From positions 5,165,024 through 5,205,023 of the forward strand of contig CALNYT010000002.1 in the NCBI GenBank assembly GCA_942490885.1: a stretch of 40,000 nt of DNA, given 5' to 3'. Numbering within the stretch: position 1 is the stretch's first letter; every line of letters starts with the position of its first letter. The notes under the pieces are model-generated. The model ran no database searches. It saw nothing but the letters and a program-made list of their open reading frames with translations, and was not told where the DNA came from. Below, piece after piece: positions 23,374-38,650 of the stretch. The position numbers and the translations under genes are program-made. This DNA comes from an uncultured Clostridiaceae bacterium (GTDB lineage: Bacteria > Bacillota > Clostridia > Clostridiales > Clostridiaceae).

Positions 23374-23418
23374 ATAACTTAATATAAATAACTTAATATA
23401 AATAACTTAAAATAAATA
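23363..23418. repeat. 14-bp tandem repeat (acttaatataaata) x4
   Basis: Three exact copies and one with a single mismatch. The first copy contains the stop codon of the regulator gene. Confidence 0.9.
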
Positions 23419-23423
23419 ATAAA

Positions 23424-23466
23424 CACGATATGTTGCTTAAAAGTAATGCATCGTGCTTATTTTTTT
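23424..23466 (+). terminator. Probable terminator after the regulator gene
   Basis: cacgat...atcgtg stem followed by ttattttttt. Confidence 0.5.
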
Positions 23467-23500
23467 ATTCTTTAGGAAATTGAAAAATTTCCTAAAGAAT
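23467..23500. promoter_or_regulatory. Perfect 15-bp-arm palindrome (candidate operator or hairpin)
   Basis: attctttaggaaatt-gaaa-aatttcctaaagaat. A third half-site, aaatttctaaagaat, lies at 23562-23576. Confidence 0.6.
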
Positions 23501-23589
23501 TTATCACATGTAATATTGCTTATATCAACGGGGTGCATGTTTGTGTAAAATTGTACCAGTTAAATTTCTAAAGAATAAAAAAATGAAGA

Positions 23590-23702
23590 GGTTGTAGGGG
23601 AAGTATTTCCCCTGCCGGTTTAAGAAGGGTGCTCAGCAACGATAGTTGTGTCGAAGGGAAACATAGGTTTCCCTAGCGAAGCGCGTGCAACGCGCCTTTT
23701 TG
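23590..23702 (+). ncRNA. GC-rich multi-hairpin leader ending in an intrinsic terminator (candidate attenuator or antitermination target)
   Basis: Hairpins at 23596-23613 (AGGGGAA/TTCCCCT), 23637-23648, 23655-23674 (AGGGAAAC/GTTTCCCT) and GCGCG-tgcaa-CGCGC plus T5 at 23681-23702. It lies ~100 nt upstream of the first structural-operon gene. Confidence 0.55.
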
Positions 23703-23798
23703 AAATAAATCTATAACTTTTTAATGCTCCTGCATATATCCTTATGAAAGCATAAAACAGTAAAGCTTTCAAAACAAATATAGAGGAGGAATTATATT

Positions 23799-24023
23799 AT
23801 GTCAGTAACAAACACAAGAGTGGACAGTGATTTAATCGTAGGAGTTAAGACTGGAACAAAAAAAACAGGAGGAGATGAGATTAAAAATTTCAGATTCTCA
23901 AAAATTAAGATTGATGCAGCTGATGAAGCTATATATGCAGTAGGTTCAAAAATAGCATCATTGATACCTTATCCAGTAAAGTACATCCAGAGAGTTAATG
24001 ACAATCTTTTGATTAGTGAATAA
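23799..24023 (+). CDS. DUF1659-like small protein
   Basis: 74 aa with a strong RBS GAGGAGG. The pattern (F.FSKIK.DA.DEAIY.V...I..L) and the pairing with a DUF2922-like neighbour support the call. Confidence 0.6.
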   Translation: MSVTNTRVDSDLIVGVKTGTKKTGGDEIKNFRFSKIKIDAADEAIYAVGSKIASLIPYPVKYIQRVNDNLLISE

Positions 24024-24099
24024 TATTAGCAAATCAAAATGGACGGGCTATTTCTAAGAAATCAATAAAAAAAACTATCAAAATAAAAGGAGAGAGATT

Positions 24100-24315
24100 A
24101 TGAAAAAATTAAGCATGAAATTTGTAACTACTAATGATGATATTACAACACTAACTATCAATGAAGTTAGAGAGGACATAAGTGATGAGCAAGTAAATTC
24201 TTTGATGGATGAGATAATTACACAAAATGTATTCTATTCATCAGGTGGATCACTTGTTAAGAAAAAGAGTGCAAAAATTATTGATGTAACAGAAGCTGAT
24301 GTTGAAATTGCATAG
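24100..24315 (+). CDS. DUF2922-like small protein
   Basis: 71 aa. KKLSMKFVT...T.TI.EVREDISDEQVNSLMDEIITQNVF matches the DUF2922 pattern. RBS AAGGAGAG. Confidence 0.6.
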   Translation: MKKLSMKFVTTNDDITTLTINEVREDISDEQVNSLMDEIITQNVFYSSGGSLVKKKSAKIIDVTEADVEIA

Positions 24316-24730
24316 ATAGTAAATAAAAGGCTGGAATTTTTTCCAGCCTTTTTTTACTAACTGATGAGTATATATATTCTGGCATTATACCTAAATCTAT
24401 AATAATTGGTTTATCATCGGGAAGTTTTAATAAGTCAATTATGAAGAATTGCATCATTTCCGCTGGTAAGTCAAGTAACCATTGACAATGAATATCTACT
24501 GGTCTATTAAACCACTTTTCCCAATCTAAATTAGGATTAGGATATTGAAGAGTGTTGTATTCAATAGGACAAGAATATGGCCTGTATTTTAAAATATCAT
24601 CATCTAGGGTTTGGCAACCTAAATCCTCAATGAATTTTTTTGTCATGGTGCTTTTGCCCGCACATGGACCTCCATTTAACCAATAAACATGTTTTAAGTG
24701 TTCTTTAAGATAATTATCGTTTAGTTTCAT
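24278..24730 (-). CDS. P-loop NTPase/kinase-like protein (antisense to the tail operon, 3' end suspect)
   Basis: Walker A GGPCAGKST. RBS GGAGG lies before the ATG at 24730 (MKLNDNY). The last ~26 codons read through the terminator hairpin and into the antisense of the DUF2922 gene. Confidence 0.55.
   Translation of the reverse strand: MKLNDNYLKEHLKHVYWLNGGPCAGKSTMTKKFIEDLGCQTLDDDILKYRPYSCPIEYNTLQYPNPNLDWEKWFNRPVDIHCQWLLDLPAEMMQFFIIDLLKLPDDKPIIIDLGIMPEYIYSSVSKKRLEKIPAFYLLSMQFQHQLLLHQ
24325..24356. terminator. Bidirectional rho-independent terminator
   Basis: aaaaggctggaa-tttt-ttccagcctttttt, with an A-run and a T-run on the two sides. Confidence 0.75.
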
Positions 24731-25128
24731 ACTAACCTCCATCAATCTAGTAATTTCTACACTGCAGTCATTATAGCATTTAACAGTAAATAAATGGGAA
24801 TATAAAACAGTTATAGTTGTTTTATACCTGTATAAAATGGACGATATAATTAAGTATGGCGAGATAATAATAAATATTATAGAAAAATTAGAGATTAATT
24901 ATATATTTATTCAAAGATAATTGAAATTATTTGGTCTATACTTATATCATGGACAAAATAAAGAAACACATAAGTACTTCACTTATTCAGAGTAATTATT
25001 AAGTCCATTAAGGCGATAATCTTATAAAGTTTTCCAGTTGAAACTAAAGTTATACGTACAGGTCTGAGGTGTCTATGATTTTGATATATGTATAAATCTA
25101 GTTTTTATTTGAAATCTCTATAAAGGAG

Positions 25129-25548
25129 GTGAATGTAAATAAATTGATAGTCAAAGATATTACCATAAACAACATAATAAATAAATTTAAAGAATTAAAT
25201 GATGTTGAAGCATATTTCGGAAAACTTCCAGATGGAGTTGAAGAGCCGAATATGCTTTTTTTAATACCTAAAATAGTTGTTCAGAGTGGGAAAAGTTCAA
25301 ACAAATTGTTCTCATATGATATGAAGATTAGGTTATCAGAATCAGATTTAGCAGCTGCATATGAGAAAGGTGTGGGAATCTTAGACAAAATTGATGTTAA
25401 AAGCTTTCCAGTAAGAATAACAACATTGGAACTAGGGGAAGAAGAATCACAGATAATGATTAATATGAGTTTCTTAGAGGAGAGAGTTAGTCAGCAGCAA
25501 GAGGGAACTAAGATAGGGAAAATAAGTTTTGATACAAAAATAAAATAA
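25129..25548 (+). CDS. Tail-associated hypothetical protein (XkdJ position, upstream of sheath)
   Basis: Assigned by position only. The start is uncertain because GTG 25129 overlaps RBS AAGGAGGTG; an in-frame TTG at 25144 is the alternative. Confidence 0.5.
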   Translation: MNVNKLIVKDITINNIINKFKELNDVEAYFGKLPDGVEEPNMLFLIPKIVVQSGKSSNKLFSYDMKIRLSESDLAAAYEKGVGILDKIDVKSFPVRITTLELGEEESQIMINMSFLEERVSQQQEGTKIGKISFDTKIK

Positions 25549-25570
25549 TTAGAAAGGAAGTGCGATATTT

Positions 25571-26893
25571 ATGGCAGGAGGAACATTTGAAAAAGGAGTT
25601 AGTAAAAGAAGACCAGGTTTATATGTGAATTTTGAGTCAGCTGCATTGTCTAGAATTGAATCAGGTGAAAGAGGAACAGTTGTAATCCCAATAATATGTA
25701 GTTGGGGAGAGAGTAAATCTTTTAAGGTAATAGAAAAAGAGAAAGACGTCTTTGAAAACTTTGGGCATAAAGTTATAGAACCAGAGGTTATTTATATTAG
25801 AGAGGCAATGAAACGAGCAAATAAGGTTATTGCCTATAGATTAAATGATGGAGTTAAAGCAACAGCAACTTGGGGTACACCAGAAACAATTGTAACAGCA
25901 GTACATGGCGGTGTAAAAGGAAATAATATTACAATAAAATGCACTGATATAAGTGCTTCAACTAAAAAAACAGTTGAGACATACTTCAATATGAAACTTG
26001 TAGATGAACAGGTTGTTGAAAATATTGAAGAGTTTAAAGAGAATGGATATGTAACTTTTAGTGGAACTGGAGCAATCAGTGCTACTGCAGGAACTACATT
26101 ATCAGGAGGAACTGATACAAAGGCATCTGATAATGATTATTTAGATTTCATGGATCACAGTGAGGTACAAGAATTTGATACTATTGCATTACCTACTGAT
26201 GAGAGTTCATTAAAAACAATATTTACTAACTTTATTAGAAGATTAAGAGATGATGAAGGCAAGAAGGTTGTTGGGGTATTAAGTAGATTTGATTCTGATT
26301 ATGAAGGAATTATAAATGTTACTAACGGTATAATTCTTGAAGATGGAACTGAGTTAAGCGCAGTTGATAGTACTGTATGGGTTGCAGCTGCTGCAGCTGG
26401 TGCAGATATAACTGAATCTTTAACATATTCAAAGTATACAGGTGCAGTTGATGTTAATCCTAGAAAAACACATAGTGAATATAAAGAAGCATTAAAGAAT
26501 GGAGAATTTGTTTTTCAATTTGATGGGGCTGGGGTTAAGGTAGAGCAAGATATAAACTCACTAAAAAGCTTTACCCCTAATAAAGGGAAAATGTTCTCTA
26601 AGAATAGAATAATGAGAACATTAGATGCTATCAATAATGATCTTACAAGAGTATTTAGAGATAGTTATATTGGAAAGTTAGATAATAATGAAGATGGACA
26701 CGCAGTTTTATCATCAGCAGTAGATAATTATTTCTTAAATCTACAGAATGGTGGCGCAATAAAGAACTTTGTTCCTGGTAAGGATTTTGTGATTGATGTA
26801 AATAAATCAGTTGGTGATGAGGTATATGCAGTGGCAAATATACAGCCAGTAGATAGTATGGAAAAAATCTATTTTGAAGTGAAGATTAATTAA
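25571..26893 (+). CDS. Contractile tail sheath protein (XkdK-like)
   Basis: 440 aa. The N-terminal GGTFEKGVSKRRPGLYVNF is typical of PBSX/clostridial sheath proteins. It is followed by a tube gene. Confidence 0.85.
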   Translation: MAGGTFEKGVSKRRPGLYVNFESAALSRIESGERGTVVIPIICSWGESKSFKVIEKEKDVFENFGHKVIEPEVIYIREAMKRANKVIAYRLNDGVKATATWGTPETIVTAVHGGVKGNNITIKCTDISASTKKTVETYFNMKLVDEQVVENIEEFKENGYVTFSGTGAISATAGTTLSGGTDTKASDNDYLDFMDHSEVQEFDTIALPTDESSLKTIFTNFIRRLRDDEGKKVVGVLSRFDSDYEGIINVTNGIILEDGTELSAVDSTVWVAAAAAGADITESLTYSKYTGAVDVNPRKTHSEYKEALKNGEFVFQFDGAGVKVEQDINSLKSFTPNKGKMFSKNRIMRTLDAINNDLTRVFRDSYIGKLDNNEDGHAVLSSAVDNYFLNLQNGGAIKNFVPGKDFVIDVNKSVGDEVYAVANIQPVDSMEKIYFEVKIN

Positions 26894-26904
26894 TATAGGG
26901 AGGA

Positions 26905-27357
26905 ATGGACATGGCATATAGTACAATGAATACAATTTCAGCAAAAGAGGGTAGATATTTCATTGATGGAGAAGAGGTTTTAAATGGTATTAAACTTGAA
27001 TTGACTGTAGAAAAGCAAAAGGTTGAAGTTAAAAGATTAGGGAAGAGAATGATAGGTCATAGAAGTATAGGACTTAAAGCTACAGGAACAATGACAGAAT
27101 ATCATGCTACTTCAAAATTTGCAGAGATGCTTCAAAGATATAAAGATACTGGTGAAGATGTATATTTAAACGGTGTTGCAATATTAGATGATAAGGCATC
27201 AGGAAGAGGAAAAGAGAAGATTGCTCTTGTAGGAATTAATATTGATTCTGCTAAATTAATCAGTTTGGACGCAGAAGGAGAGCTTATTAAAGATGAACTT
27301 GCATTTACAGTGGAAGATTTCTATATTCAAGGAGATGGACTTAAGGAGCAAGTGTAA
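26905..27357 (+). CDS. Tail tube protein (XkdM-like)
   Basis: ~150 aa, immediately after the sheath gene. The likely start is ATG 26911, 8 nt after GGGAGGA. Confidence 0.8.
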   Translation: MDMAYSTMNTISAKEGRYFIDGEEVLNGIKLELTVEKQKVEVKRLGKRMIGHRSIGLKATGTMTEYHATSKFAEMLQRYKDTGEDVYLNGVAILDDKASGRGKEKIALVGINIDSAKLISLDAEGELIKDELAFTVEDFYIQGDGLKEQV

Positions 27358-27396
27358 AGCGCAGAGTAGTTGCATCTATAAATTATAAATAATAGT

Positions 27397-27428
27397 AAGC
27401 TAGCTTATATAAAATAGGCTAGCTTTTT
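27397..27428 (+). terminator. Intra-operon hairpin plus T-run after sheath/tube genes
   Basis: aagctagc-13 nt loop-gctagctt followed by ttt. Confidence 0.5.
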
Positions 27429-27460
27429 AAATTAAGTGAAAGAAGAAAGGAGCTAATAAC

Positions 27461-27880
27461 ATGGATATAAATTTATTTTTAAAAGGCAAAGAGGAGAATC
27501 TACCAGAGATTGAAAGAGTAGTGACTAAGAGGTATATGAATGAAGAAGGGGAGTACATTCCATTCAAATTTAGAGCAATCGCTTCAAAACGTCTAAATGA
27601 AATAAAAAAGGAATGTACATCTGTAATACACACAAAAGGACAGAAGATTGAGAAGTTCAATAATCAGAGATTTATTAATATGGTTGGTATTGAATCCACG
27701 ATATTTCCTAATTTCAAAGATAGTACATTGTTAGAATCTTATGAATGTATAGATCCAAATGATCTTGTACAAGAAATCCTTAAGATGCCAGGTGAATACT
27801 CAGAATGGGTTGAGACTGCATTTAAGATAAATGGATTTGATGATACATTTGAGGAACTGGTGGAAAAGGGAAAAAACTAA
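27461..27880 (+). CDS. Tail assembly chaperone (XkdN-like), zero-frame product
   Basis: 139 aa between the tube and tape measure genes. It ends ...GGA AAA AAC TAA, which contains the slippery heptamer. Confidence 0.75.
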   Translation: MDINLFLKGKEENLPEIERVVTKRYMNEEGEYIPFKFRAIASKRLNEIKKECTSVIHTKGQKIEKFNNQRFINMVGIESTIFPNFKDSTLLESYECIDPNDLVQEILKMPGEYSEWVETAFKINGFDDTFEELVEKGKN

Positions 27881-28050
27881 TAAAGAGCGGTGATTTTTTT
27901 GCAGTCTTTTTTCACCGCTTATTTCAAAAACATCATATATTACCGCAAACTTTCTATGAGATGGATGAATACCATAGAGCGTTGATAATTGCCAGTGAAA
28001 AGATTGCAATCGAGGAAGAGGATAAGGAGATGGCAAGAATGAGGAGGTGA
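27461..28050 (+). CDS. Tail assembly chaperone, predicted -1 frameshift fusion (join 27461..27877, 27877..28050; ~196 aa)
   Basis: Slippery A_AAA_AAC at 27871-27877. The -1 frame is open from the slip site to TGA 28048-28050. A 9-bp stem lies at 27885-27893 pairing with 27912-27920. The extension ends 4 nt before the tape measure start. Confidence 0.6.
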
Positions 28051-28054
28051 AATT

Positions 28055-29647
28055 ATGGCTAAACTAACAAATCTAGTGAACATTTGGAACGATGTAGGCA
28101 CAGCTATTGATTCTGCATCTAAGAGGATACAGGAGTTTGATAATAGGGTTAATGGAATAATGTCAACGGCAAACAATGTCACCATTGCAGTTGATGTGGC
28201 AGGAGAAAGTGCAATTATTAGTGAAATAACATCAGCCTATTCTGAAATAGGGGCGGCAACAGCTTCATTAATAGGGGATGTTGCAGCAAGTGCTAATAAG
28301 ATGTATAAAGCTTTTGAACCAAAGTTAAATAAGATTAAGCATAAGTTCTCAACCACATTTGAACCTTTGGTTACAAAAGTAGAAGATATTACAAGTAAAA
28401 TTGCAGATGCCTTTGAGCCATTGGTATCAAAGGTTGGATCAGTTACAAGTAAAATAGGTACTAAGGTAGCTGAAGCATTAGAGCCACTAAAAACAAAAGC
28501 TGAATCTGTAGTAGAAAGTGTAAATAAGAAACTCAATAGTTTGAAAGAAAAGATAAAGGTGAAATTTGCAGTAGATCAGAATGTGGACTATGCTTCCATG
28601 GATCAGGTTGCAGCCGCAGCAGAGAATATGGGAACATCAGCTGTAGGGGTTATAAAGTCGACTGCTGATGTCAATAAGAATGCATTGGCAACCAGAGGTA
28701 ATTATCTGGCAACAGTTGAGAATGCTGAAGGACTTAGGCAATCTATCGGAGCTACATGGGAAGCCATAACAGCAAATGATGCTTCAGAGGAAGCAATTAT
28801 GAATGCTGTTATAGCAACTAAAGAATCAATAATAGCAACTAAAGAGAGTATAGTGAAAACAATTACTTCAGCTCAAGAAACATGGAACTCAGTTGGGGCA
28901 ATGAAGCAATCAATAGGAACAGCATGGGAATCAGTAAAAGCATTTAAGAATGTGGCAGCATCAACAAAAGCTGCAGCTATAGCTCAGAAAATATTCAATT
29001 TCATTATGAACTTAAATCCAATAATTCTTATAGTTACAGCGGTTATGCTCTTGGTAGGTGCTCTTATTTATCTATATACTCATAGTGAGACTGCTAGAAA
29101 GATTATGGATAAACTGTGGAGTGGAATGAAAAAAGGGGCTGAGGTCGCAATAAACGGAGTTATAAAGGTCATTAATTTCTTTATAAGGGCTTTAAATAAA
29201 ATAAAGTTACCTGATTGGCTTGGAGGTGGAGGATTTGACATCAAGGAGATAAACGAGGTCAAATTTACAGATCCAGAAAAGGAAAAGAAGATGATAGATA
29301 AGGCATCAGGAGCAAAGGAAGAGGAATATGTATCAAAGATTAAGGAACCACCTTCAATAGGAATTCAAGAAGAGACACCTAATATTAATAACAGTTTGGA
29401 AATGAGTAATTTGGATATGACATCTGCTAGTAACCTATCACCAACAGAAACAGATAATATGATGCAATCAACTTCATCAGTAAAAAATTACGACAACAGC
29501 AGTAGTAATAATTATGAAATCCAAAGTCTAATTGGACAAGTAAATGTTACTAAAGAAGCTGATGAGGATAGATTAATTACTAAGTTAGAAGATATGCTTA
29601 AGAGTGAACTGGATACAGGAGGTGCTTATGCTTATGCAGGAGTATAA
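28055..29647 (+). CDS. Tail tape measure protein (XkdO-like)
   Basis: 530 aa, alpha-helical and Ala-rich with internal repeats. One TM-like segment (PIILIVTAVMLLVGALIYLY). Position follows the chaperone. Confidence 0.8.
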   Translation: MAKLTNLVNIWNDVGTAIDSASKRIQEFDNRVNGIMSTANNVTIAVDVAGESAIISEITSAYSEIGAATASLIGDVAASANKMYKAFEPKLNKIKHKFSTTFEPLVTKVEDITSKIADAFEPLVSKVGSVTSKIGTKVAEALEPLKTKAESVVESVNKKLNSLKEKIKVKFAVDQNVDYASMDQVAAAAENMGTSAVGVIKSTADVNKNALATRGNYLATVENAEGLRQSIGATWEAITANDASEEAIMNAVIATKESIIATKESIVKTITSAQETWNSVGAMKQSIGTAWESVKAFKNVAASTKAAAIAQKIFNFIMNLNPIILIVTAVMLLVGALIYLYTHSETARKIMDKLWSGMKKGAEVAINGVIKVINFFIRALNKIKLPDWLGGGGFDIKEINEVKFTDPEKEKKMIDKASGAKEEEYVSKIKEPPSIGIQEETPNINNSLEMSNLDMTSASNLSPTETDNMMQSTSSVKNYDNSSSNNYEIQSLIGQVNVTKEADEDRLITKLEDMLKSELDTGGAYAYAGV

Positions 29648-30263
29648 TGAGAAATTTAATTATGAAATATGGATAAAGTCCTTGGATAGAAGAAGGAAGT
29701 ATAGGTTACCGGTAAATCCAGAAAAAATTGATATTACATCCAAGTCAAGGAATAAGAAAATAGACTTGATGTCTGTTGGAGAAGCAACACTTTTAAATAA
29801 GAAAGGTCTTATAGAAATAAAACTATCATCAATATTACCTAAAAGGTATGGCCCTTATTGTGAGTATACTGATATACCTAATCCATGGGAGGTTGTTGAG
29901 TTTATTGAAGAGAACAGAGGGGTATTACCTTTATGGTTTGTGATAACAAATACATCAATAAATATGTTGGTCACTGTGGAGAATTTATCTTTCAAAGAGA
30001 AAAGTGGAGATGTTGGAACATTACATTATGATATGACAGTTAAAGAGTTTAGGAATCTTTCTCTTCCAGGAAGTAAAGGGATTGTATTGAATGGTCCAAT
30101 GAGTAAGAACAATAAAGAAAGAGAATACAAAATTAAAGCAGGGGATTACCTAAAAAAGATTGCTAGGGATTTAGGGATTGATGATTGGACAAAAATTGCT
30201 GAGATCAATAATATTAAAGCACCATACACCATATATACAGGGGAGGTTTTAAGATTACCATGA
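29628..30263 (+). CDS. LysM-domain tail protein (XkdP-like)
   Basis: C-terminal LysM YKIKAGDYLKKIARDLGIDDWTKIAEINNIKAPYTIYTGEVLRLP. The ORF track start is 29604; ATG 29628 or 29634 follows GGAGGTG. Confidence 0.75.
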   Translation: MLMQEYNEKFNYEIWIKSLDRRRKYRLPVNPEKIDITSKSRNKKIDLMSVGEATLLNKKGLIEIKLSSILPKRYGPYCEYTDIPNPWEVVEFIEENRGVLPLWFVITNTSINMLVTVENLSFKEKSGDVGTLHYDMTVKEFRNLSLPGSKGIVLNGPMSKNNKEREYKIKAGDYLKKIARDLGIDDWTKIAEINNIKAPYTIYTGEVLRLP

Positions 30264-31228
30264 TAAGTGTATTTTGTGGTAGGGGAGAGAAAACCTATGA
30301 TATTAGCAATGTAATAAAAAATGTATCCGTAAAAGGAGAGATATCAAAGGCGTGCAGAGAGCTGACTTTAGATATCTCTGGTGAAATTACAGGGTTGCCA
30401 TATTTAAAAGAAGGAGCTTGCATTCTATTTAAAGTTGAAGATAAAGAAGTTTTTCAGGGATTTGTCTTTTCAGTTGGAAACAGTAAAGGAGAAGACCTAA
30501 AGGTAAAATGTTATGACATGGGAATATATCTAAAAAAGAATAAACAGACTTACAAATTCAATAACAAAAAAGCATCAGATATTATCAAAATCATATGCAC
30601 AGATTTCAGTATTCCTATGGGAGAGGTTGATGATAGTGGGTTTAATATAAAAACCTTAATACTAGAGAATAAAACTTTGTTTGATAGTATTAAGAGTGCC
30701 ATTGAGATGACCTTTAAGCAGACTGGTAAGAAATATAGACTATTCTCTAGAATGGGAAAAATATTTTTTAAAGAGATTGATACTCCTAAGCAAGCAATAA
30801 TAATTGAAGAAGGAGCAAACCTTATAAGTATTGATTACACAACTTCAATTGATGATTTAAAGAATAGAGTGAAGTTAGTGAAAGAAGTTTCTAAGGATAA
30901 TGATGATGATGTGAAATCAGATAATAAGGAATTACAAGAGCAGTTTGGGGTTCTTCAGTACTTTGAAAAGGTTAAGGAGAATGTTAATAAAGCGCAGATG
31001 AATGAGCGAGCAGATAAACTATTGAAGGAAAAAAGCAAGAAGAAAGAAGAAGTGAGGTTAAAAGCATTAGGTAATATAGAGGTATCCAGTGGGGAGATTA
31101 TATTTATATCCTCTCCAGCTATAGATACAGAAGGATATTTTAAGGTAGTACAAGATGACCATACATTTAATAATGGAGAGCATATGATGTCACTTAAGGT
31201 TGAGAGGAGTGATATTAATGATGATTGA
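30260..31228 (+). CDS. Baseplate hub / tail protein (XkdQ-like)
   Basis: 322 aa with an ATGA overlap to the LysM gene. Assigned by position and size in the PBSX-type order. Confidence 0.65.
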   Translation: MISVFCGRGEKTYDISNVIKNVSVKGEISKACRELTLDISGEITGLPYLKEGACILFKVEDKEVFQGFVFSVGNSKGEDLKVKCYDMGIYLKKNKQTYKFNNKKASDIIKIICTDFSIPMGEVDDSGFNIKTLILENKTLFDSIKSAIEMTFKQTGKKYRLFSRMGKIFFKEIDTPKQAIIIEEGANLISIDYTTSIDDLKNRVKLVKEVSKDNDDDVKSDNKELQEQFGVLQYFEKVKENVNKAQMNERADKLLKEKSKKKEEVRLKALGNIEVSSGEIIFISSPAIDTEGYFKVVQDDHTFNNGEHMMSLKVERSDINDD

Positions 31229-31529
31229 TATTATAAAAGAAGCAGCCATTGAAGCTGTAGAAGGTATGAATCCTATGAAATTATATATTGGAACAGTTAC
31301 TAGCTGTTTACCAGATATAAGAATAGCTTTAAATAATAACAATAAAATTGTTTTAGATAGAGAAGATCTTTTTATACCTAAGAGGATTACAGAATTAAAA
31401 GGCAAAGTAAGGATTAACGATACAGATAAAAGTGTGGAAGTTCAGGTAGCACCTAAAGTTGGAGATAAGGTAGCGGTTATGCGAATACAAGGAGGTCAGC
31501 AATATTTTCTTATGGATATTGTTGAGTAA
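31218..31529 (+). CDS. Baseplate spike/plug protein (XkdR-like, DUF2577-type)
   Basis: ~103 aa, with the ATG 8 nt after GAGAGGAG. Assigned by position. Confidence 0.6.
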   Translation: MMIDIIKEAAIEAVEGMNPMKLYIGTVTSCLPDIRIALNNNNKIVLDREDLFIPKRITELKGKVRINDTDKSVEVQVAPKVGDKVAVMRIQGGQQYFLMDIVE

Positions 31530-31554
31530 AGATAAGAGCAATTGGAGGGGTGAG

Positions 31555-31962
31555 ATGAATATAATACCCAACATGAATATTAAAAGTGATACTGAATATG
31601 AAAGTATCTATAGAAAGACATATGGAATAGACTTTGAAAAGGGAAGAATAAGTGGGGTTGTTCAGGGAAAAGAAGCTGTAAAACAGTATATTCATAAGGT
31701 TATTAAGACAAATAAAGGTGCTTATGATATATATACTGACTACGGAAGTGACCTTGAGGAATTGATAGGTGATTCACCCACTGAAAATTTATTGATCAGT
31801 GATGTTAAGAGAGAGATAAAAGATACTTTAATAAAAAATAAAGATATTAATAAGGTGTATGATTTTAAATTCTTCTTTCTAGAGGATAATAGAGAATCTT
31901 TGATGGTAAAATTCAAGGTTGATACTGTATTTGGAGAGATTAATGTAAAGGAGGTGTTGTAA
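31555..31962 (+). CDS. Baseplate wedge protein (XkdS-like, gp25/W-type)
   Basis: ~135 aa, with an ATG after GGAGGGG. Assigned by position before the baseplate J gene. Confidence 0.6.
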   Translation: MNIIPNMNIKSDTEYESIYRKTYGIDFEKGRISGVVQGKEAVKQYIHKVIKTNKGAYDIYTDYGSDLEELIGDSPTENLLISDVKREIKDTLIKNKDINKVYDFKFFFLEDNRESLMVKFKVDTVFGEINVKEVL

Positions 31963-32984
31963 TGTTCAGCAAATCATTTGATGATATTATGGATGAAATG
32001 AAATTAAATGTGCCAACAGGAATGGATGGAAGAGAAGGATCTATATTGTATGATGCCCTAGCACCAATAGCTTTAGCTCTTGAAAAGGCATATATGGATA
32101 TGGATAGCATTATAGAATTAGCTTTTGCTGAAACTAGTAATGGTGAATATTTAGGTATGAGGGCAGAGGAATTTGGTGTATCAAGAAAGGAAGCTCAACG
32201 ATCAATAATTCAGGGACAGTTTAATTTGGAAGTACCAATAGACAGTAAGTTTTATGTAGAGGGATTATCTTTTACAGTATTTGAAAGTGGAAAACTTATA
32301 TGTGATACTTCAGGGAAGATTTCAAATATTGAAGGGAAGGAGCTTATCCCTGTAAACAATATTGAAGGTTTAACTACTGCATCTGTAACAAAAATAATAT
32401 TCTCAGGAGAGGATGAAGAAAGTGATGAAGAGCTATTAAAGCGGCTGCATCATAAAGTAAGAAACCCTGTAACGAGCGGGAATATTGGTCACTATAAGTT
32501 ATGGGCTAATTCTGTTAATGGTGTGGGTGATTGTAGGATAATTCCCAAATATGATGGTGTTGGAACAGTGAAGGTTATAGTGATAGATAATAATAAGCAA
32601 CCTCCAGCAGACTGTGTTGTTAAGAATGTGAATGATTATATTGATAAAGTTAGACCAATTGGTGTTGATGTTGCAGTTGTGAAAGCAAAAGGGGTTAGTA
32701 TTGATGTTCAATGTACTTTGAAGGTTAGTGAAGGAGCAAATGTAGAGGATATTAAATCAAGAATTATTGATAATATTGAAGAGTATTTAAGGAGTATAGC
32801 TTTTAAGGTGAATGAGGTTAGATATTCTAGAATATTGAATAATATATTTCAAGTTGAAGATGTGGAAGACTGCATCAATCTTGTAATAAGCAGTGATGAT
32901 ACTACACAGAAAGATAATAATAATATTATATTAAATACTGATGAAGTTGCAGTTATTGGGCAGGTGATATTCCATGAATCTTAA
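31962..32984 (+). CDS. Baseplate J-like protein (XkdT-like)
   Basis: 340 aa with a Baseplate_J-like N-terminus (REGSILYDALAPIALAL...). Translationally coupled to its neighbours. Confidence 0.75.
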   Translation: MFSKSFDDIMDEMKLNVPTGMDGREGSILYDALAPIALALEKAYMDMDSIIELAFAETSNGEYLGMRAEEFGVSRKEAQRSIIQGQFNLEVPIDSKFYVEGLSFTVFESGKLICDTSGKISNIEGKELIPVNNIEGLTTASVTKIIFSGEDEESDEELLKRLHHKVRNPVTSGNIGHYKLWANSVNGVGDCRIIPKYDGVGTVKVIVIDNNKQPPADCVVKNVNDYIDKVRPIGVDVAVVKAKGVSIDVQCTLKVSEGANVEDIKSRIIDNIEEYLRSIAFKVNEVRYSRILNNIFQVEDVEDCINLVISSDDTTQKDNNNIILNTDEVAVIGQVIFHES

Positions 32985-33495
32985 GGATATGGCACCTCCT
33001 TTTTTATACGAAATTTCTGAGATAAAAGAGATATATGATAAATCTCAGTTTGCTTATAACAACTTGACTAATGCTATTGAAGATTTAAATAATCAATGTT
33101 TCGTTAAAAAGAGTACTAAAGGAAAAGGTCTTGATGAATGGGAAAAGTTCTTGGATATTTATGAGAATAAAAAAGAAGGTGAACAGTTCAGACGAGAGGC
33201 TATAGTTGCAAAAATACAGGGGAATGGAGCGATAACTAAAGCAAAGCTCAAGGAGATAGCAGGTAACTTCTCAGGTGGAACTATAGATATAATTGAGGTG
33301 CCTAGGGAAGGTAAATTCATAATTAAATTCATTGATAAGGATGGAATACCAGAAAATATAAATGGATTTAAAAGTCTGATTGATAGCTTAATCCCAGCCC
33401 ATCTTGATTATGAAATACAGTATAAGTATCTTATATGGGGTATAGTAGAGGACAAAACATGGCAAGATGTAGAGAATGTTCTTTGGGGAACTTAA
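32974..33495 (+). CDS. Baseplate/tail-fibre adaptor (XkdU-like, DUF2313-type)
   Basis: 173 aa overlapping the J-like gene. Assigned by position before the fibre gene. Confidence 0.6.
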   Translation: MNLKDMAPPFLYEISEIKEIYDKSQFAYNNLTNAIEDLNNQCFVKKSTKGKGLDEWEKFLDIYENKKEGEQFRREAIVAKIQGNGAITKAKLKEIAGNFSGGTIDIIEVPREGKFIIKFIDKDGIPENINGFKSLIDSLIPAHLDYEIQYKYLIWGIVEDKTWQDVENVLWGT

Positions 33496-33551
33496 AGGAT
33501 GAGATTTAAAATAGAAGAAATTGAACAAAAAAGTAATAATGGAGGTGTTTT

Positions 33552-35603
33552 ATGAAAAATACAACACATTACAATTTAAAAAAGCCTGATAGAACTGATG
33601 TTATAAAGATAGATGATCTAAATTATAACGTAGATGTTATTGATGGTGAGTTAAATAAAAGAGCTCTTAAAACTGACATTCCATCCGAATTACCTGCGGA
33701 TGGAGGTAATGCAGATACAATTGGAGGAAAAAGTCCATCTGATTTTGCAACAATTCAGCAAGGCATGAAGGCAGATACAGCACTTCAATCCGATAAGCTA
33801 GGAAAATCAGGGGGAGCAGCTAAACATGATCAGCTTATCTCAGATTATTATAAGAAGAATGAAGTAGATGGGAAAATATCTGCTGAGGTGAATAGGGTTG
33901 ATGCACAAATGGCTGAAATTATGTCGCAACAGTTTGATACTAAAACTTACAAAGAGAGTTTTAATAAACTTGAAAATTGTGAGGGTGGGAGTTTAGCTGT
34001 TGAGAAGATTAAAGGTAGAACTTTAGCACCATTAGTAATCTTAAATAATGCAACGGACTGGTGGGGATGGTTCAGTTCTACTCTTATAGAAGATAGTACA
34101 GACATGTTTATGGGACTTCCTAGTATAAAATCTACTATAGCAAATGGTGGTTGTGCTGTGGGTGCATATCAAAATATAAAGAATTACATTACTGTGGGTA
34201 AAAGTTATTTCTCTAGTATCTATGTAAAGAAGAGTAACTTAGATTTCACTGTCCAACTTCGTGTTAGAATTATATATAATGATGGCACAACAGAAGATTG
34301 GAATTATTCTGAAACGCACAGTTTAACTGATAATTTCTATAGGCTAGGCGTTAAGTTTAAAGCAACAAAGACAGTTCAGGATATTTACATTTATGTTCAA
34401 AATAGTTCTACGGCCGTTGCTGATATGTCATTTAAACTTGTTGCTTACTCATTATATGAAATCCCTATTGAAGATTATATTTTATCTGAACAAGAACTCT
34501 TAGAAAAATATCCTTATGTTAGCGATATCCAGGGGAGCTTGATACGCAATATAAAGACATTGGGTAAAAACTTATTTAATAAAAATTCAAATTATAAACA
34601 GTATAATAATACATCACTTGATATTACAAGTACAGGATTTATATTAAAAACAACCTCTAAGAATATTGGTGCAGGTATAATTGATATGCAAATAAAAGTT
34701 AGGAAAAACACGCAGTACTCTCTCAGCTCTACTTCAATATTTATAAGTGGTCAAGAAGATTCTTATACTGGTAGAATTGAAATCTCTGATTATCCTATAA
34801 AAAAAATTATTGGTTATATTCCTAAAGAAAATAATCATACATATTTTAACAGTGGCAATAATAGCATAATCAATATTAGATTCTTAACAAGAGGAAACAA
34901 TTCCAATCTAAATAAAGTTGAATTTAAAAATATTCAATTTATAGAAGGTTCTATAGCACCAACAGGATACACACCATATGAAGAACACTCAGAAGATATT
35001 GGAGTAGAACTACATGGAATTAACGGAATTCATGACGAGATAGTGAACAATACAGTTATATTCCGTAATAAGGAAACTCTGCTAAATGGCTCTGAGACAT
35101 GGGAAATGACTGGCTATACAACTACAAATACAAATGCATTTAGAATTAACAAAGATGATATCGCAAACATTAATATTTTATGTGATAAATTTATTGTTGA
35201 GCCCAATTGGACTGATTTTAAAAATCAAGATAAAGAATGTATTTTATTTGCAAATTCTAACAATAAACTATACATTAGGATTAATAAAAATAAAGCAACA
35301 GATTTAGCAACATTTAAAACGTGGTTATCTACAAATAATACTAAGGTTGTTTATAACACAAAAGAAGAATTTTATACAGTTGAAGTCCTTGAGGATTTTA
35401 ATAATAACTTGAAAGCCTTTAAAGATGGACATATGATAGTTGAATATGAAGGTATGTGTCCTGAAATAACTGCAACATACGCTATTAATATAGCCGCAGT
35501 TAGAGAAAGTATGGCAGATATGACTAAGACTAATGCTGACCAGATTAATAATATTTGGGATGCATTATTTTTAATTACAAAAGAAATACAAGCATTAAAA
35601 TAA
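33552..35603 (+). CDS. Tail fibre / receptor-binding protein
   Basis: 683 aa. The N-terminus has the conserved fibre anchor THYNLKKPDRTDVIKIDDLNYNVDVID. The N/S/T-rich beta-type body is typical of receptor-binding proteins. Confidence 0.8.
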   Translation: MKNTTHYNLKKPDRTDVIKIDDLNYNVDVIDGELNKRALKTDIPSELPADGGNADTIGGKSPSDFATIQQGMKADTALQSDKLGKSGGAAKHDQLISDYYKKNEVDGKISAEVNRVDAQMAEIMSQQFDTKTYKESFNKLENCEGGSLAVEKIKGRTLAPLVILNNATDWWGWFSSTLIEDSTDMFMGLPSIKSTIANGGCAVGAYQNIKNYITVGKSYFSSIYVKKSNLDFTVQLRVRIIYNDGTTEDWNYSETHSLTDNFYRLGVKFKATKTVQDIYIYVQNSSTAVADMSFKLVAYSLYEIPIEDYILSEQELLEKYPYVSDIQGSLIRNIKTLGKNLFNKNSNYKQYNNTSLDITSTGFILKTTSKNIGAGIIDMQIKVRKNTQYSLSSTSIFISGQEDSYTGRIEISDYPIKKIIGYIPKENNHTYFNSGNNSIINIRFLTRGNNSNLNKVEFKNIQFIEGSIAPTGYTPYEEHSEDIGVELHGINGIHDEIVNNTVIFRNKETLLNGSETWEMTGYTTTNTNAFRINKDDIANINILCDKFIVEPNWTDFKNQDKECILFANSNNKLYIRINKNKATDLATFKTWLSTNNTKVVYNTKEEFYTVEVLEDFNNNLKAFKDGHMIVEYEGMCPEITATYAINIAAVRESMADMTKTNADQINNIWDALFLITKEIQALK

Positions 35604-35621
35604 TTAAAGAGGTGATTATAT

Positions 35622-35726
35622 ATGAATAGAAAATTTGAAACACTTGAAGATCTTGAAGCTTTTTTATTAGAGAAGGGAGTCGGTGGAATCACAGAAGTAC
35701 TGACAAAAGAAGTAAGGCAAACATAA
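35622..35726 (+). pseudogene. Disrupted copy of the small coiled-coil gene that follows the fibre gene
   Basis: MNRKFETLEDLEAFLLEKGVGGITEVL... matches the first ~27 aa of ORF 36969..37169 and stops at 35724. A coiled-coil continuation (KEENKKLTEENLSLKLALAEQAE...) lies in the +1 frame. Confidence 0.6.
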
Positions 35727-35862
35727 AGAAGAGAATAAAAAACTTACAGAAGAAAATTTAAGTTTGAAATTAGCACTTGCAGAGCAGGCAGAGAGTGAAA
35801 TGAATGATAAATTAGAACTACAACTAGTAATAGCAGAATTAAGTCAAGGAGGGAATGTATGT

Positions 35863-36003
35863 ATGATGATTAAGTTGTATGCTGATTTATTAGAAGGAGA
35901 TTTAAGAAGTTTAGAAAAAATTGAGGGTAAAATACAAGTACCTTTAAAGTACAGAGACAGTGTAAAACAAGAATTAATTAATCGTGGATTTATTGTACAA
36001 TAG
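35863..36003 (+). CDS. Small 46-aa protein (XkdX position), copy 1
   Basis: ATG 9 nt after AAGGAGGG. MMIKLYADLLEG... is paralogous to MLKTYLVDMLVR... at 37169. The ORF track merges it with the upstream frame (35764..36003). Confidence 0.5.
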   Translation: MMIKLYADLLEGDLRSLEKIEGKIQVPLKYRDSVKQELINRGFIVQ

Positions 36004-36120
36004 GAAAATGTATAGTTAATTTGTCAAAACAGAATATTACAAAGTGCAAAAAAATTGACATATCAAACCTAATAAGTTATTATATACATTAACAGACAAT
36101 AATTTCAAGGAGGGGTATTT

Positions 36121-36630
36121 ATGTTAAAAAGAAAAATAGCTTCAAAAATTTTATTACCTAGTATGATGGCACTATTATTTATATTTTTAACTTTCACTTC
36201 AGCGTTTGCTTATGCAGGTTATGTGCCAATAACTGACCAAAAATATGAAGTAGAAAGTAATGATACAGAAACAACGGCTAATATTATACCTTTTAATGGG
36301 CAGTATACTATAGTTAAAGCGGCATATAGTCATTATGGGGATGAAGATTATTTTATTTTTGCATGTGGAGAAGATAGACATATGATATTAAGGTTTTATC
36401 CTTTAACTGGTAATACGCCTATAAGTAAAACTGCACCATTCTATATTATGATAGAAGATAGATTAACAGGCGAGATGATACATGCTAATGGGATGAAACA
36501 AGTTGGTAAAACAGAAACAATAGAATTTTCTGGTAAGGCAGGACATACTTATTCAATTTTCATAGGTAAAGAGGGAGTAGCGGGAGAGCATATAGGCGCT
36601 AGATATTCTATAGGTATATGGGGTAGATAA
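36121..36630 (+). CDS. Secreted PPC (pre-peptidase C-terminal)-like domain protein
   Basis: Signal peptide (KILLPSMMALLFIFLTFTSAFA-YA). EVESNDTETTAN...GDEDYFIF matches the PPC-domain signature. It has its own TTGACA/TATTAT promoter-like boxes (36055-36083) and a strong terminator. Confidence 0.65.
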   Translation: MLKRKIASKILLPSMMALLFIFLTFTSAFAYAGYVPITDQKYEVESNDTETTANIIPFNGQYTIVKAAYSHYGDEDYFIFACGEDRHMILRFYPLTGNTPISKTAPFYIMIEDRLTGEMIHANGMKQVGKTETIEFSGKAGHTYSIFIGKEGVAGEHIGARYSIGIWGR

Positions 36631-36647
36631 ACACAATAACATAATTT

Positions 36648-36695
36648 AAAACAAAGAGTAGGAACTATATAGTTTTCTACTCTTTTGTTTTAAAT
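36648..36695 (+). terminator. Rho-independent terminator
   Basis: A ~18-bp stem, aaaacaaagagtaggaact...agttttctactcttttgtttt. Confidence 0.8.
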
Positions 36696-36701
36696 ATATA
36701 T

Positions 36702-36950
36702 GCCACAATAGAAGATTTTTATGAAACCAAAGTAATTAAAGATTTCTACAATAAAATACCTTGCTTTAAAGATGGACATATAATAGTTGAATATGAAGGT
36801 ATGTGTCCTGAAATAACTGCAACATACGCTATTAATATAGCCGCAGTTAGAGAAAGTATGGCAGATATAACCAAGACTAATGCTGACCAGATTAATAATA
36901 TTTGGGATGCATTATTTTTAATTACAAAAGAAATACAAGCATTAAAATAA
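36702..36950 (+). pseudogene. 3' remnant (83 codons) of a second tail-fibre allele
   Basis: ATIEDFYETKVIKDFYNKIPCFKDGHIIVEYEGMCPEITATYAINIAAVRESMADITKTNADQINNIWDALFLITKEIQALK* aligns with the C-terminus of the 683-aa fibre. The last ~187 bp are nearly identical at the nucleotide level. Confidence 0.85.
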
Positions 36951-36968
36951 TTAAAGAGGTGATTATAT

Positions 36969-37169
36969 ATGAATAGAAAATTTGAAACACTTGAAGATCT
37001 TGAAGCTTTTTTATTGGAAAAAGGGGCTGGAGGAGTTACAGAAGTATTAGTTTCGGAACTAAAAAAGAAAGATACTGAGATTGAAACTTTAAAAGAAGAT
37101 AAATCAGCAGATAGAATAAGAATTCAATCTTTGGAAGATGCGATGCTCGAACAGGAGGGGTTGATCTAA
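36969..37169 (+). CDS. Small coiled-coil protein following the fibre module (intact copy)
   Basis: 66 aa with RBS AAGAGGTG. The N-terminus is duplicated at 35622. Confidence 0.6.
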   Translation: MNRKFETLEDLEAFLLEKGAGGVTEVLVSELKKKDTEIETLKEDKSADRIRIQSLEDAMLEQEGLI

Positions 37170-37348
37170 TGTTAAAAACATATTTAGTTGATATGCTAGT
37201 AAGAAAGATAACTAAGAAAGAAATTAATAGTAAAACTAAGGAAGCATACAAAGTTACGGATATTAAAATTCAGGAATATAGAGTAGTTGTACAATCAAAA
37301 CTGGATGAAATGATAGCAACAGAGATTGCAGAGAAAATTATAACATAA
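37169..37348 (+). CDS. Small 59-aa protein (XkdX position), copy 2
   Basis: Below the size range of the ORF track. A TAATG overlap with the upstream stop suggests translational coupling. Translation: MLKTYLVDMLVRKITKKEINSKTKEAYKVTDIKIQEYRVVVQSKLDEMIATEIAEKIIT*. Confidence 0.5.
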   Translation: MLKTYLVDMLVRKITKKEINSKTKEAYKVTDIKIQEYRVVVQSKLDEMIATEIAEKIIT

Positions 37349-37482
37349 TTAAGAATATTTTAAAAAGAAGTACTCTTTTCACTTAAGAAAAAATATTTGA
37401 TTATCTTAGCTTGAATCAAAATAAAGTTAGGTTAATGATAGAAGCGGTTTTAAATGATTATCAACACTCAAAGGAGGTAATA

Positions 37483-37704
37483 ATGGAAAAATTAATAGTA
37501 ATGGCTTTACAACAAGGGCTCGGATACGGGCTCTTTGTTTTTTTACTTATTTATATATTAAAGAAACAGGAAGATAGAGATAAGTTTTCTGATATGCGAG
37601 AAGAGAGATATCAGGAAATAATAGGAGAGCTTACTGCAAGTTTGAATATTGTAGAGGATGTTAAGAAGGATGTTGAAGATATTAAAGATTATCTGGGGAG
37701 GTGA
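37483..37704 (+). CDS. BhlA/UviB-family holin-like protein
   Basis: MEKLIVMALQQGLGYGLFVFLLIYILKKQEDRD... has a single N-terminal TM and a charged coiled tail, as in BhlA/UviB. ATG follows AAGGAGG (the ORF track starts earlier, at 37411). Confidence 0.7.
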   Translation: MEKLIVMALQQGLGYGLFVFLLIYILKKQEDRDKFSDMREERYQEIIGELTASLNIVEDVKKDVEDIKDYLGR

Positions 37705-37708
37705 TAGG

Positions 37709-38314
37709 GTGAAGATTATAGAAAGTGGTCTGAAGTTTAATAGTAAGCTTGATAAGAGAGCAAAAACATCATTGATTGTTATACACCATGCAGAGGCAAC
37801 AGAATGTACTATAGAGGATATTCATAGATGGCATTTAGACTACAGATGGAGTGGATGTGGGTATCATTATTTTATAAAAAAAGACGGTAGTGTATATAGG
37901 GGGAGACCAGAAGCTTCAATTGGTGCACACTGCCTAGGAAATAATAACCAATCAATAGGGATATGTCTTGAAGGAAATTTTAATAAAGAAGAGATAAAGA
38001 ATAAACAAAGTAATGTGCTTGTTAAGCTATGTAAAAACATTATGACCAGATATGATATTGAAGAAATTAGAGGGCATAAAGAACTATTCCAAACTGATTG
38101 TCCTGGGAAGAATTTTCCACTTGAAGAGATAAAGAAAAAAATACACACAAAAAACCATATAGATATATTAGGTTTACAGAAATACATGAATAGAAATGGA
38201 GTCACTGATTATGAAAATAAAAGACTCAATGAGGATGGAATTTTAGGAAATAGAACTCAAAGTGCTTTTGAAAAACTATGTAGATATATAAAAGAAGAAA
38301 ATATTAAAAGATAA
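37709..38314 (+). CDS. N-acetylmuramoyl-L-alanine amidase (Amidase_2/PGRP fold) with C-terminal PG-binding repeat
   Basis: LIVIHHAEA, GYHYFI, GAHCLGNN...CPG motifs. C-terminal DGILGNRTQSAFEKL resembles PG_binding_1. GTG follows GGGGAGGTG. Confidence 0.85.
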   Translation: MKIIESGLKFNSKLDKRAKTSLIVIHHAEATECTIEDIHRWHLDYRWSGCGYHYFIKKDGSVYRGRPEASIGAHCLGNNNQSIGICLEGNFNKEEIKNKQSNVLVKLCKNIMTRYDIEEIRGHKELFQTDCPGKNFPLEEIKKKIHTKNHIDILGLQKYMNRNGVTDYENKRLNEDGILGNRTQSAFEKLCRYIKEENIKR

Positions 38315-38326
38315 GGAGAGATTGAT

Positions 38327-38650
38327 ATGAGTGATTTATTTAATTTTGTATGGGAATGTAGATTTATTATAGTTCTTTTAATAAATATATTGATATATGC
38401 TTTTCTTGAGTGGGAAAAATTCAAGAGAGAAGCATATAAATATATGCTTGCAGCAAAAAAGTTAGCAAAAGATGCTATATTAAATTCAGGAGAAGAACAA
38501 CAAGAATGGGTTATAGAAAAGATTTTAAAAGTATCACCTAAGGGTATAACTATTTTTTTAGGTGAGGAAAGATTGAAAAGTATTATAAAAGGCCTATATG
38601 ATAATATGAAAGATTTACTGGATGATGGAGAATTGAATGAAAGTTTCTAG
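38327..38650 (+). CDS. Small membrane protein of the lysis module (function unknown)
   Basis: 107 aa with one N-terminal TM (FIIVLLINILIYAFL). RBS AAGGAGAG. It is the last gene of the tail cluster. Confidence 0.5.
   Translation: MSDLFNFVWECRFIIVLLINILIYAFLEWEKFKREAYKYMLAAKKLAKDAILNSGEEQQEWVIEKILKVSPKGITIFLGEERLKSIIKGLYDNMKDLLDDGELNESF

Follow-up and report, generated by a model that had tools for sequence, protein, structure and literature searches.

A fibre remnant and a duplicated fibre junction in a candidate tailocin cluster: probable scar of a fibre-module exchange

The late genes of PBSX of Bacillus subtilis are arranged in the order xkdV-xkdW-xkdX-xepA-xhlA-xhlB-xlyA. The fibre genes of phages Mu and P1 contain invertible segments (G segment and C segment) that are flanked by inverted repeats and switched by the invertases Gin and Cin. 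Homology-facilitated illegitimate recombination, reportedly described by de Vries and Wackernagel in 2002, is said to integrate foreign DNA by one homologous anchor and one illegitimate joint. The specificity of tailocins and phages evolves by swapping of fibre modules, which is usually inferred from phylogenetic incongruence over many strains. Localised recombination of the receptor-binding protein and its chaperone has been described for the R-type syringacins of Pseudomonas syringae (ISME J 2019, PMC6331570), and recombination of tail fibres for carotovoricin (PMC13195805). In both studies, clean allele replacements were inferred from many strains, and neither text contains the string "duplicat" or mentions a fibre "remnant" (PMC6331570, PMC13195805). 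Here, we describe a locus behind the tail fibre gene of a candidate tailocin in a 40,000-nucleotide (nt) window (assembly GCA_942490885.1, contig CALNYT010000002.1, positions 5,165,024 to 5,205,023) of the genome of an uncultured Clostridiaceae bacterium, in which the junction between the fibre gene and the small gene behind it is present twice and the 3' end of a second fibre gene is preserved.

The locus carries, in this order, an intact fibre gene (fibre A), a frameshifted small gene, W(A), a second small gene, X(A), a cassette for a 169-aa protein, a terminator, the remnant of another fibre gene (stump B), the small genes W(B) and X(B), and the genes of a BhlA holin and an amidase (Table 1). 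A sequence-only reading of the window had arrived at the layout fibre(A) - small genes(A) - PPC gene - fibre stump - small genes(B), which was correct, and had taken it as the footprint of a foreign fibre module that destroyed a resident one. Our data point to a recombination scar as the probable origin of this layout: two related fibre-W-X modules would have been joined illegitimately once, and their shared junction would then have been subject to gene conversion.

Table 1. Features of the duplicated fibre junction and its surroundings (positions refer to the window)
Feature	Position	Strand	Basis
Intact tail fibre A, 683 aa	33552..35603	+	Open reading frame (ORF), phrog tail fiber match, N-terminal search, alignment with P0002/P0003
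Junction module, copy A: fibre C-terminal domain, ribosome-binding site (RBS), 5' end of W	35346..35704	+	blastn limits, segment identities
Core, copy A, presumably homogenised	35417..35669	+	253 bp, 4 mismatches to 36764-37016
W(A), first post-fibre small gene, disrupted	35622..35865	+	Three-frame translation, DNA alignment, Logan contig L009
X(A), second small gene, 45 aa	35866..36003	+	Weak phrog_1382 match
Promoter-like site TTGACA-17-TATTAT, 11/12 matches, before 169-aa gene	36055..36083	+	Promoter scan
Putatively secreted 169-aa protein: N-terminal hydrophobic helix and one predicted collagen-binding-domain/PPC-like beta-sandwich	36121..36630	+	Profile search, AlphaFold2 (AF2), Foldseek
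Intrinsic-terminator-like hairpin with U-tract, closes 169-aa cassette	36641..36697	+	Inverted repeat I5; -21.7 kcal/mol, z -6.1
Fibre remnant B, 83 homologous codons, no start codon	36699..36950	+	Translation, alignment to fibre C-termini
Core, copy B, presumably homogenised	36764..37016	+	Repeat search, segment identities
W(B), intact, 66 aa	36969..37169	+	ORF, match to L013
X(B), intact, 59 aa; start overlaps W(B) stop (TAATG)	37169..37348	+	ORF
Lysis cassette: BhlA-type holin, Amidase_2 endolysin, 107-aa gene	37411..38650	+	Pfam/phrog matches, contig match

The repeat search returned a single family between 33000 and 40000, a direct repeat of 283 nt (35417-35699 and 36764-37046) with 96% identity and a spacing of 1347. 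In the ungapped register, its first 253 nt are 98.4% identical and differ at exactly four positions (copy A/copy B: 35435 G/A, 35522 G/A, 35525 T/C, and 35669 A/G), so that the near-identical repeat with about four mismatches that had been noticed from the letters is real. A maximum chi-square scan over the alignable register of 359 nt gave 35417-35668 as the best segment (chi-square 86.8), and none of 300 shuffles scored as high, which places the repeat far outside chance. Outside this core, identity falls to 59% over 71 nt on the left and to 66% over 35 nt on the right and then to a background of ~30%; contrary to the gradual decay assumed before, the decay is abrupt. The two copies therefore share a near-identical block with sharp limits within older, diverged homology (98.4% versus 59% and 66%), which is the appearance of a gene conversion tract. 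The core comprises the last 61 codons and the stop codon of the fibre gene, a spacer of 18 nt with the RBS AAAGAGGTGA, and, in its 3' part, 16 codons from the start of the small gene that follows (ATG at 35622 and 36969), in line with the content claimed earlier.

A repeat of this kind could also arise in the assembly, if a repeat was collapsed or mis-joined or if two haplotypes were mixed. The genome may derive from a metagenome (97.5% complete, 3.35% contamination), but the window lies on a contig of 5.28 Mb, which points to long reads. The Logan contigs of run ERR9670067, made with a different assembler, match the window at 100% in three pieces (23807-35465, 35639-36812, and 36986 to beyond 40000), and all breaks between them are exactly 30 nt away from a copy-specific base (35435, 35669, 36782, and 37016). 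At 100% identity, the run represents the same strain, possibly even the source data, so that the comparison gives independence of the assembler, not necessarily of the sample. Breaks 30 nt past copy-specific single-nucleotide polymorphisms (SNPs) are the signature left by a true two-copy repeat at k = 31, and the contigs link fibre A to the copy-A SNP at 35435, the insert to both copies, and W(B) to the copy-B SNP at 37016. Therefore, an assembly artefact, a danger that the sequence-only reading had itself raised, can be set aside as extremely improbable.

Where the two copies come from becomes apparent from a comparison with related fibres. Among 5.8 billion proteins, the fibre C-terminal module (query residues 590-683) was found only in fibre A and in two further proteins, P0002 and P0003. 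P0002 is a second fibre of the same genome (830 aa, locus L002, G000:C2:4194140-4197517) with a C-terminal module of 82% DNA identity, and P0003 is a fibre of 872 aa on a 27-kb phage contig, L013. Both have BppU_N N-termini, and L013 has siphovirus-type structural genes; L013 and L002 are phages, not this tailocin. Neither contains a stump: the gene order is fibre-W-X-BhlA holin-amidase in L013 and fibre-W-XkdX-230-aa extra gene-XhlA-like in L002. The junction module is the sole stretch with homology at the DNA level among copies A and B, L002, and L013. The blastn limits of copy A are 35326-35699 against L002 and 35347-35698 against L013, and homology to L013 starts at 35347 for copy A and at 36695 for copy B.

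In the left flank of the module (S1, 35346-35416), copies A and B are only 59% identical, whereas A is 87% identical to L002 and 76% to L013, and B is 62% and 66% identical to them. Hence, the stump stems from another allele than fibre A, as the sequence-only reading had supposed, and a simple tandem duplication was rejected, since the flanks of the two copies differ. Differences in S1 are evenly spread over the codon positions, as they also are between functional alleles. In the core, the A-B identity of 98.4% stands against 81% (A-L002), 80% (A-L013), 81% (B-L002), 79% (B-L013), and 80% (L002-L013). With all other allele pairs at only 79-81%, the near-identity of A and B is not a matter of family conservation, although the sequence-only reading had treated the repeat in this way, and a recent homogenising event is needed. 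In the right flank (S3, 35670-35704), the values are 66% for A-B, 69% for A-L002, 71% for A-L013, 83% for B-L002, and 77% for B-L013. Copy A has retained the base common to L002 and L013 at positions 35435 and 35522, and copy B has a derived G->A change at each that replaces Met by Ile, which fits a non-coding stump drifting after homogenisation.

The fibre frame of stump B resumes from 36699 as YATIEDFYETKVIKDFYNKIPCFKDGH, directly behind the unrelated sequence of the terminator hairpin that ends at 36697, and is open to the stop at 36950, without an in-frame ATG, GTG, or TTG before 36801. The stretch of 83 codons (36702-36950) that had been called a fibre stump is therefore real. Its first 22 codons are divergent (EDFYETKVIKDFYNKIPC), and the remainder is near-identical to fibre A save for the two derived Met->Ile changes; EDFYETKVIKDFYNKIPCFKDGH is the sequence end by which a fibre of the B type would be recognised. 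The stump is homologous to the 3' end of an intact gene, is devoid of a start and a 5' part, and belongs to another allele, as a remnant does; it is presumably not expressed as a fibre and would not be able to make one.

Where copy A has TATGAT (35432-35437), the derived G->A at 36782 has produced a perfect TATAAT in copy B (36779-36784), which lies between the terminator and W(B), 185 nt upstream of the latter. Its -35 region is weak, the site is not in the list of the promoter scan, and the hexamer may be due to chance in AT-rich DNA.

The stump and the junction could be maintained because they act in cis, as a promoter or an RNA, in the expression of W(B), X(B), and the lysis genes, or the repeat could serve as an on/off switch by deletion of the 1347-bp unit in a fraction of the cells. 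A block of 253 bp at 98.4% identity is an adequate substrate for RecA, the stump spans exactly one complete conserved domain module, and the new TATAAT lies upstream of W(B). However, the -35 region is poor and the promoter scan does not list the site, there is no recombinase gene in the cluster, and the stump has acquired two derived non-synonymous changes, in keeping with neutrality; with a single genome at hand, conservation offers no test. We consider a maintained function highly improbable. An invertible switch was rejected, as the repeats are direct and no invertase gene is found among the cluster genes.

In the history that we favour, one illegitimate joint at 36695-36699 would have connected [fibre A-W(A)-X(A)-169-aa gene-terminator] to [fibre B-W(B)-X(B)-lysis]. 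Both modules would be of the type fibre-W-X, in which a moron may or may not precede the lysis genes. The joint lies between the U-tract of the terminator and the first codon of the conserved fibre C-terminal domain; it would be non-homologous and may have been guided by microhomology, for which the terminator tail TTTTGTTTTA, resembling the GTTGTTTAT that precedes the domain in fibre A, is a possible candidate. The other end of the exchange would have been closed by ordinary homologous recombination in common flanking genes and would have left no trace. By the joint, two diverged junction modules would have come to lie 1.35 kb apart in direct orientation, and intrachromosomal gene conversion (or an equivalent homologous exchange) would have overwritten the 253-bp core of one copy by that of the other. 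The frameshift in W(A) would have followed afterwards.

The single non-homologous joint shows no polarity, and therefore it is not supported to call allele B "older" or "resident" and fibre A "foreign", as the sequence-only reading did. The destruction of a resident fibre by a foreign one is only one among several readings of equal standing; the newcomer could be the half with fibre A, the half on the lysis side, or the inner unit of 1347 bp. Given the favoured history, we lean slightly toward the side of fibre A as the incoming one, give somewhat less weight to the lysis side, and assign a remainder of the latter size to neither. The exchange may have brought about a switch of the killing spectrum.

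Several points speak against this history. Its basis is a set of only four sequences (A, B, L002, and L013), and an intact fibre B, a variant without the insert, or a donor was not found in any of the collections searched. The breakpoint falls within ~5 nt of the domain boundary at which the DNA homology of all alleles begins, a place that a random joint would hit in ~1% of cases. The outer flanks (on the sides of fibre A and of W(B)) group with L002 and L013, and both inner flanks are outliers. Furthermore, gene conversion between copies of ~80% identity is inefficient, and W(B), X(B), and the lysis genes are now separated from the structural genes by the terminator, which leaves the transcription of the former unexplained.

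The outlier pattern of the inner flanks is exactly what is predicted if the insert entered as a unit. The resident order would then have been fibre A - junction - W(B) - X(B) - lysis, and a unit of 1347 bp would have entered by a homologous crossover in the core. This unit would consist of the remainder of W(A), the X(A) gene, the 169-aa cassette and the terminator, the first 22 codons of the C-terminal domain of another fibre, and one junction core. It would stem from a more divergent relative, either as a fragment that had been circularised or from a donor with a tandem duplication; the fibre would never have been replaced, and a fragment carrying a moron would have been plugged in. Consistent with this, the outer flanks are near L002/L013 (87% for A-L002 in S1, 83% for B-L002 in S3), whereas the inner ones range from 59 to 71%; the near-identical core would serve as the crossover substrate, and it is the inner W(A) that is broken while the outer accessory set is intact. 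However, a donor that had been circularised or duplicated illegitimately is required here as well, so that no event is saved, and the core of this donor must have been ~98% identical to the resident one with flanks that differ by 35-40%; no such donor was found. On account of the breakpoint at the domain boundary and the grouping of the flanks, we keep entry of the insert as a unit alive as an unlikely but serious alternative.

Two complete fibre-W-X sets could also have stood in tandem from the beginning, and the 5' 85-90% of the second fibre gene would have been lost, either by a deletion or when the 169-aa cassette was inserted. The two homologous sets do lie in direct tandem order, and other genomes of the family have two to three matches to the fibre anchor a few kilobases apart on one contig (e.g., G132:C3 and G097:C10). 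On the other hand, both relatives with the C-terminal module have a single fibre, both ends of the deletion must coincide with functional boundaries (end of the terminator and start of the domain), and the 98.4% identity of the core still requires conversion. An ancestral locus with two fibres is therefore improbable.

The search for further alleles of the C-terminal module was broad. In a six-frame search of 396 family genomes it was found in the own genome only, and no further allele was detected in 40 relatives by DNA comparison, in the viral, genome, and metagenome contig collections with a profile of the four sequences, or in 50,697 phage records by tblastn. No other strain was found for the alignment proposed in the sequence-only reading, and neither was an ancestral fibre(B) nor a variant lacking the insert. 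For W(A)/X(A), X(B), and the 169-aa gene, the own genome offers neither paralogues nor donors, and look-ups of the exact sequences of the amidase, W(B), and fibre A returned no record.

Fibre A itself is a mosaic across morphotypes. Residues ~1-98 (33552-33850) form an anchor common to fibres of the myovirus/PBSX type, which is present in 20 of 195 family genomes, and the distal part is homologous only to siphophage proteins of the BppU_N type (alignment with P0002 and P0003). An anchor of the tailocin/myovirus type combined with a distal part common with siphophages means that module exchange in this gene has a precedent at the same locus. The fibre of L002 is a potential recombination partner of the tailocin within the same cell.

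In W(A), the frame of the start codon at 35622 stops at 35724-35726 after 34 codons, and the homologous C-terminal part ...LQLVIAELSQGGNV (...LTLQMLEGGLV in the relatives) lies in the +1 frame; the shift must be located within 35716-35723. The +1 frame runs without a stop into X(A), and frameshift and fusion are identical in the independently assembled Logan contig L009. A programmed frameshift was rejected, as there is no slippery motif at 35716-35723. At the boundary of W(A) and X(A) (35850-35870), GTATGTATGATG resembles a tandem duplication of 4 nt (GTAT), which looks like the cause of the loss of the usual overlapping stop/start and thus of the fusion of the C-terminal W(A) frame to X(A). 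Since W(A) is frameshifted, a point to which the sequence-only reading of this repeat gave no weight, the intact accessory genes are those of the B set, and presumably fibre A works with W(B) and X(B), with which the particle would be built. Over 44 aa, W(B) shares 82% identity with the W of L013, the only member of its family in the protein collection, and BLASTP revealed no similarity between X(A) and X(B). None of W(B), X(B), and X(A) gave a significant Pfam match, neither to the XkdW nor to the XkdX models; a match to the XkdX model (Phage_XkdX) is found only for the X of L002. W and X of the window thus resemble XkdW and XkdX by position only.

The gene for the 169-aa protein is preceded by an RBS, and together the promoter-like site, the RBS, the ORF, and the hairpin form an autonomous cassette. 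L002 has its 230-aa extra gene in the same slot between X and the lysis genes, and therefore a gene at this place is normal for the group. The 169-aa protein has no match in Pfam even at E = 10 and no close homologue; a full HMMER scan of 1.84 billion representatives revealed 22 remote relatives, some of them small and secreted, some with two domains, and some large with repeats; one relative of 1845 aa has 32 matched stretches. A seven-sequence profile matches the tandem collagen-binding domain (CBD) of ColG (5iku, E = 5.8e-9) and the CBD of ColH (3jqw, 0.0024). In the AF2 model (predicted local distance difference test score [pLDDT] 78, predicted template modelling score [pTM] 0.71), the best Foldseek matches are 3jqw, 1nqd, 4hpk, 5iku, and 5sv5, i.e., collagenase CBDs and a PPC domain, with target template modelling (TM) scores of 0.70-0.79. 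By profile and model, the protein is predicted to belong to a small family with the fold of collagenase CBDs and PPC domains that is undetected by Pfam, and the label "PPC" given to it in the sequence-only reading is borne out at the level of fold and profile. E43, E45, N47, D74, and D76 are invariant in the family, and we take them to resemble the Ca-binding residues of ColG s3b.

The junction module of ~350 bp, with the fibre C-terminal domain, the RBS, and 27-38 codons from the start of W, may, though this is rather unlikely, be a portable docking cassette of a very small phage group. If so, receptor-binding heads on its left and accessory and lysis genes on its right would be exchangeable between siphophages and a contractile tailocin, the start of the stump at the module boundary would be no chance, the module being the recombining unit, and the homogenised core would ensure that a new fibre fits the W protein in actual expression.

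The locus belongs to a gene cluster for a head-less contractile tail (22972-38650), which encodes a sigma-like regulator, sheath, tube, XkdN-like chaperone, tape measure, LysM protein, YQBQ, DUF2577, sheath initiator, baseplate J, Gp48-like protein, fibre, BhlA holin, and Amidase_2. A full contractile-tail set is present by Pfam (Phage_sheath_1, DUF2001 tube, Phage_TAC_5, LysM, Baseplate_J, and Phage_Mu_Gp48), and the matches to YQBQ, DUF2577, and Sheath_initiator were found on Logan contig L026. No capsid, portal, or terminase was found among the genes called in 23807-38650, in which small ORFs were scanned in part, and no recombinase or invertase gene among the cluster genes. Judged from its genes, the cluster is a candidate tailocin, a PBSX-like phage-tail-like bacteriocin, with predicted particle production and killing. 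A single terminator-like site (GC-rich 9-bp stem and T-run) listed by the scan at 37514-37544 lies inside the coding region of the BhlA holin and is probably a by-product of the codons of a transmembrane segment.

The host genome has a size of 5.36 Mb, and its pepF shares 87% identity with the pepF of Oceanirhabdus sp. W0125-5; the source is an Oceanirhabdus-like genome, a marine relative of Clostridium. No close relative of the tail cluster was found in the sister species or in 30 related genomes, the best match of the Gp48-like protein being 39%. In Oceanirhabdus sp. W0125-5, the site upstream of pepF is devoid of the tail cluster, and the 6 kb upstream share nothing with the 40-kb window; similarity and synteny resume only at ~38540-38650, just before pepF (window versus L037). 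The tail cluster is therefore lineage specific at this site.

In sum, the locus is a new instance of the known exchange of fibre modules, clean but ordinary, that happens to preserve its scar. A physical joint, a discarded 3' end, and a likely conversion tract are kept at a single locus, and thus the mechanics can be read directly; the value of the case is illustrative rather than conceptual. It also offers a simple experimental system for the role of small post-fibre proteins, with fibre A and two accessory sets of which one is naturally broken, and the direct repeat of 253 bp at 98.4% should permit a RecA-dependent loss of the 1347-bp unit, which would restore the order fibre-W-X-lysis.

As in PBSX, the cluster is one for a head-less contractile tail, and the fibre gene is followed by two small genes, one gene whose product is exported, the holin gene, and the amidase gene; XkdN-like tail assembly chaperone, LysM XkdP-like, and baseplate J and Gp48-like genes are present. 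Unlike in PBSX, W and X match neither the XkdW nor the XkdX models, the holin is of the BhlA type, and the exported protein has a predicted PPC/CBD fold (it is set beside XepA of PBSX by gene position). With its promoter-ORF-terminator anatomy and its place in a slot in which L002 also has an extra gene, the 169-aa gene is like the morons of phages. As in the Mu G and P1 C segments, a start-less alternative fibre 3' end with its own accessory gene lies beside the expressed fibre gene; in contrast to these, the repeats are direct and the cluster has no recombinase gene, and therefore the stump cannot be swapped in by inversion. The combination of a homologous anchor with an illegitimate joint would resemble homology-facilitated illegitimate recombination, a mechanism that is deduced here from the end product, with the donor not found. 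The closest parallels are the syringacins and carotovoricin, in which, as here, the fibre or receptor-binding protein of a chromosomal tailocin is exchanged locally along with an adjacent accessory gene, with one breakpoint inside the fibre gene. The locus differs from them in that it is a physical scar in one genome, made up of a stump and a duplicated junction, in a Gram-positive host and in a PBSX-like cluster known from its genes.

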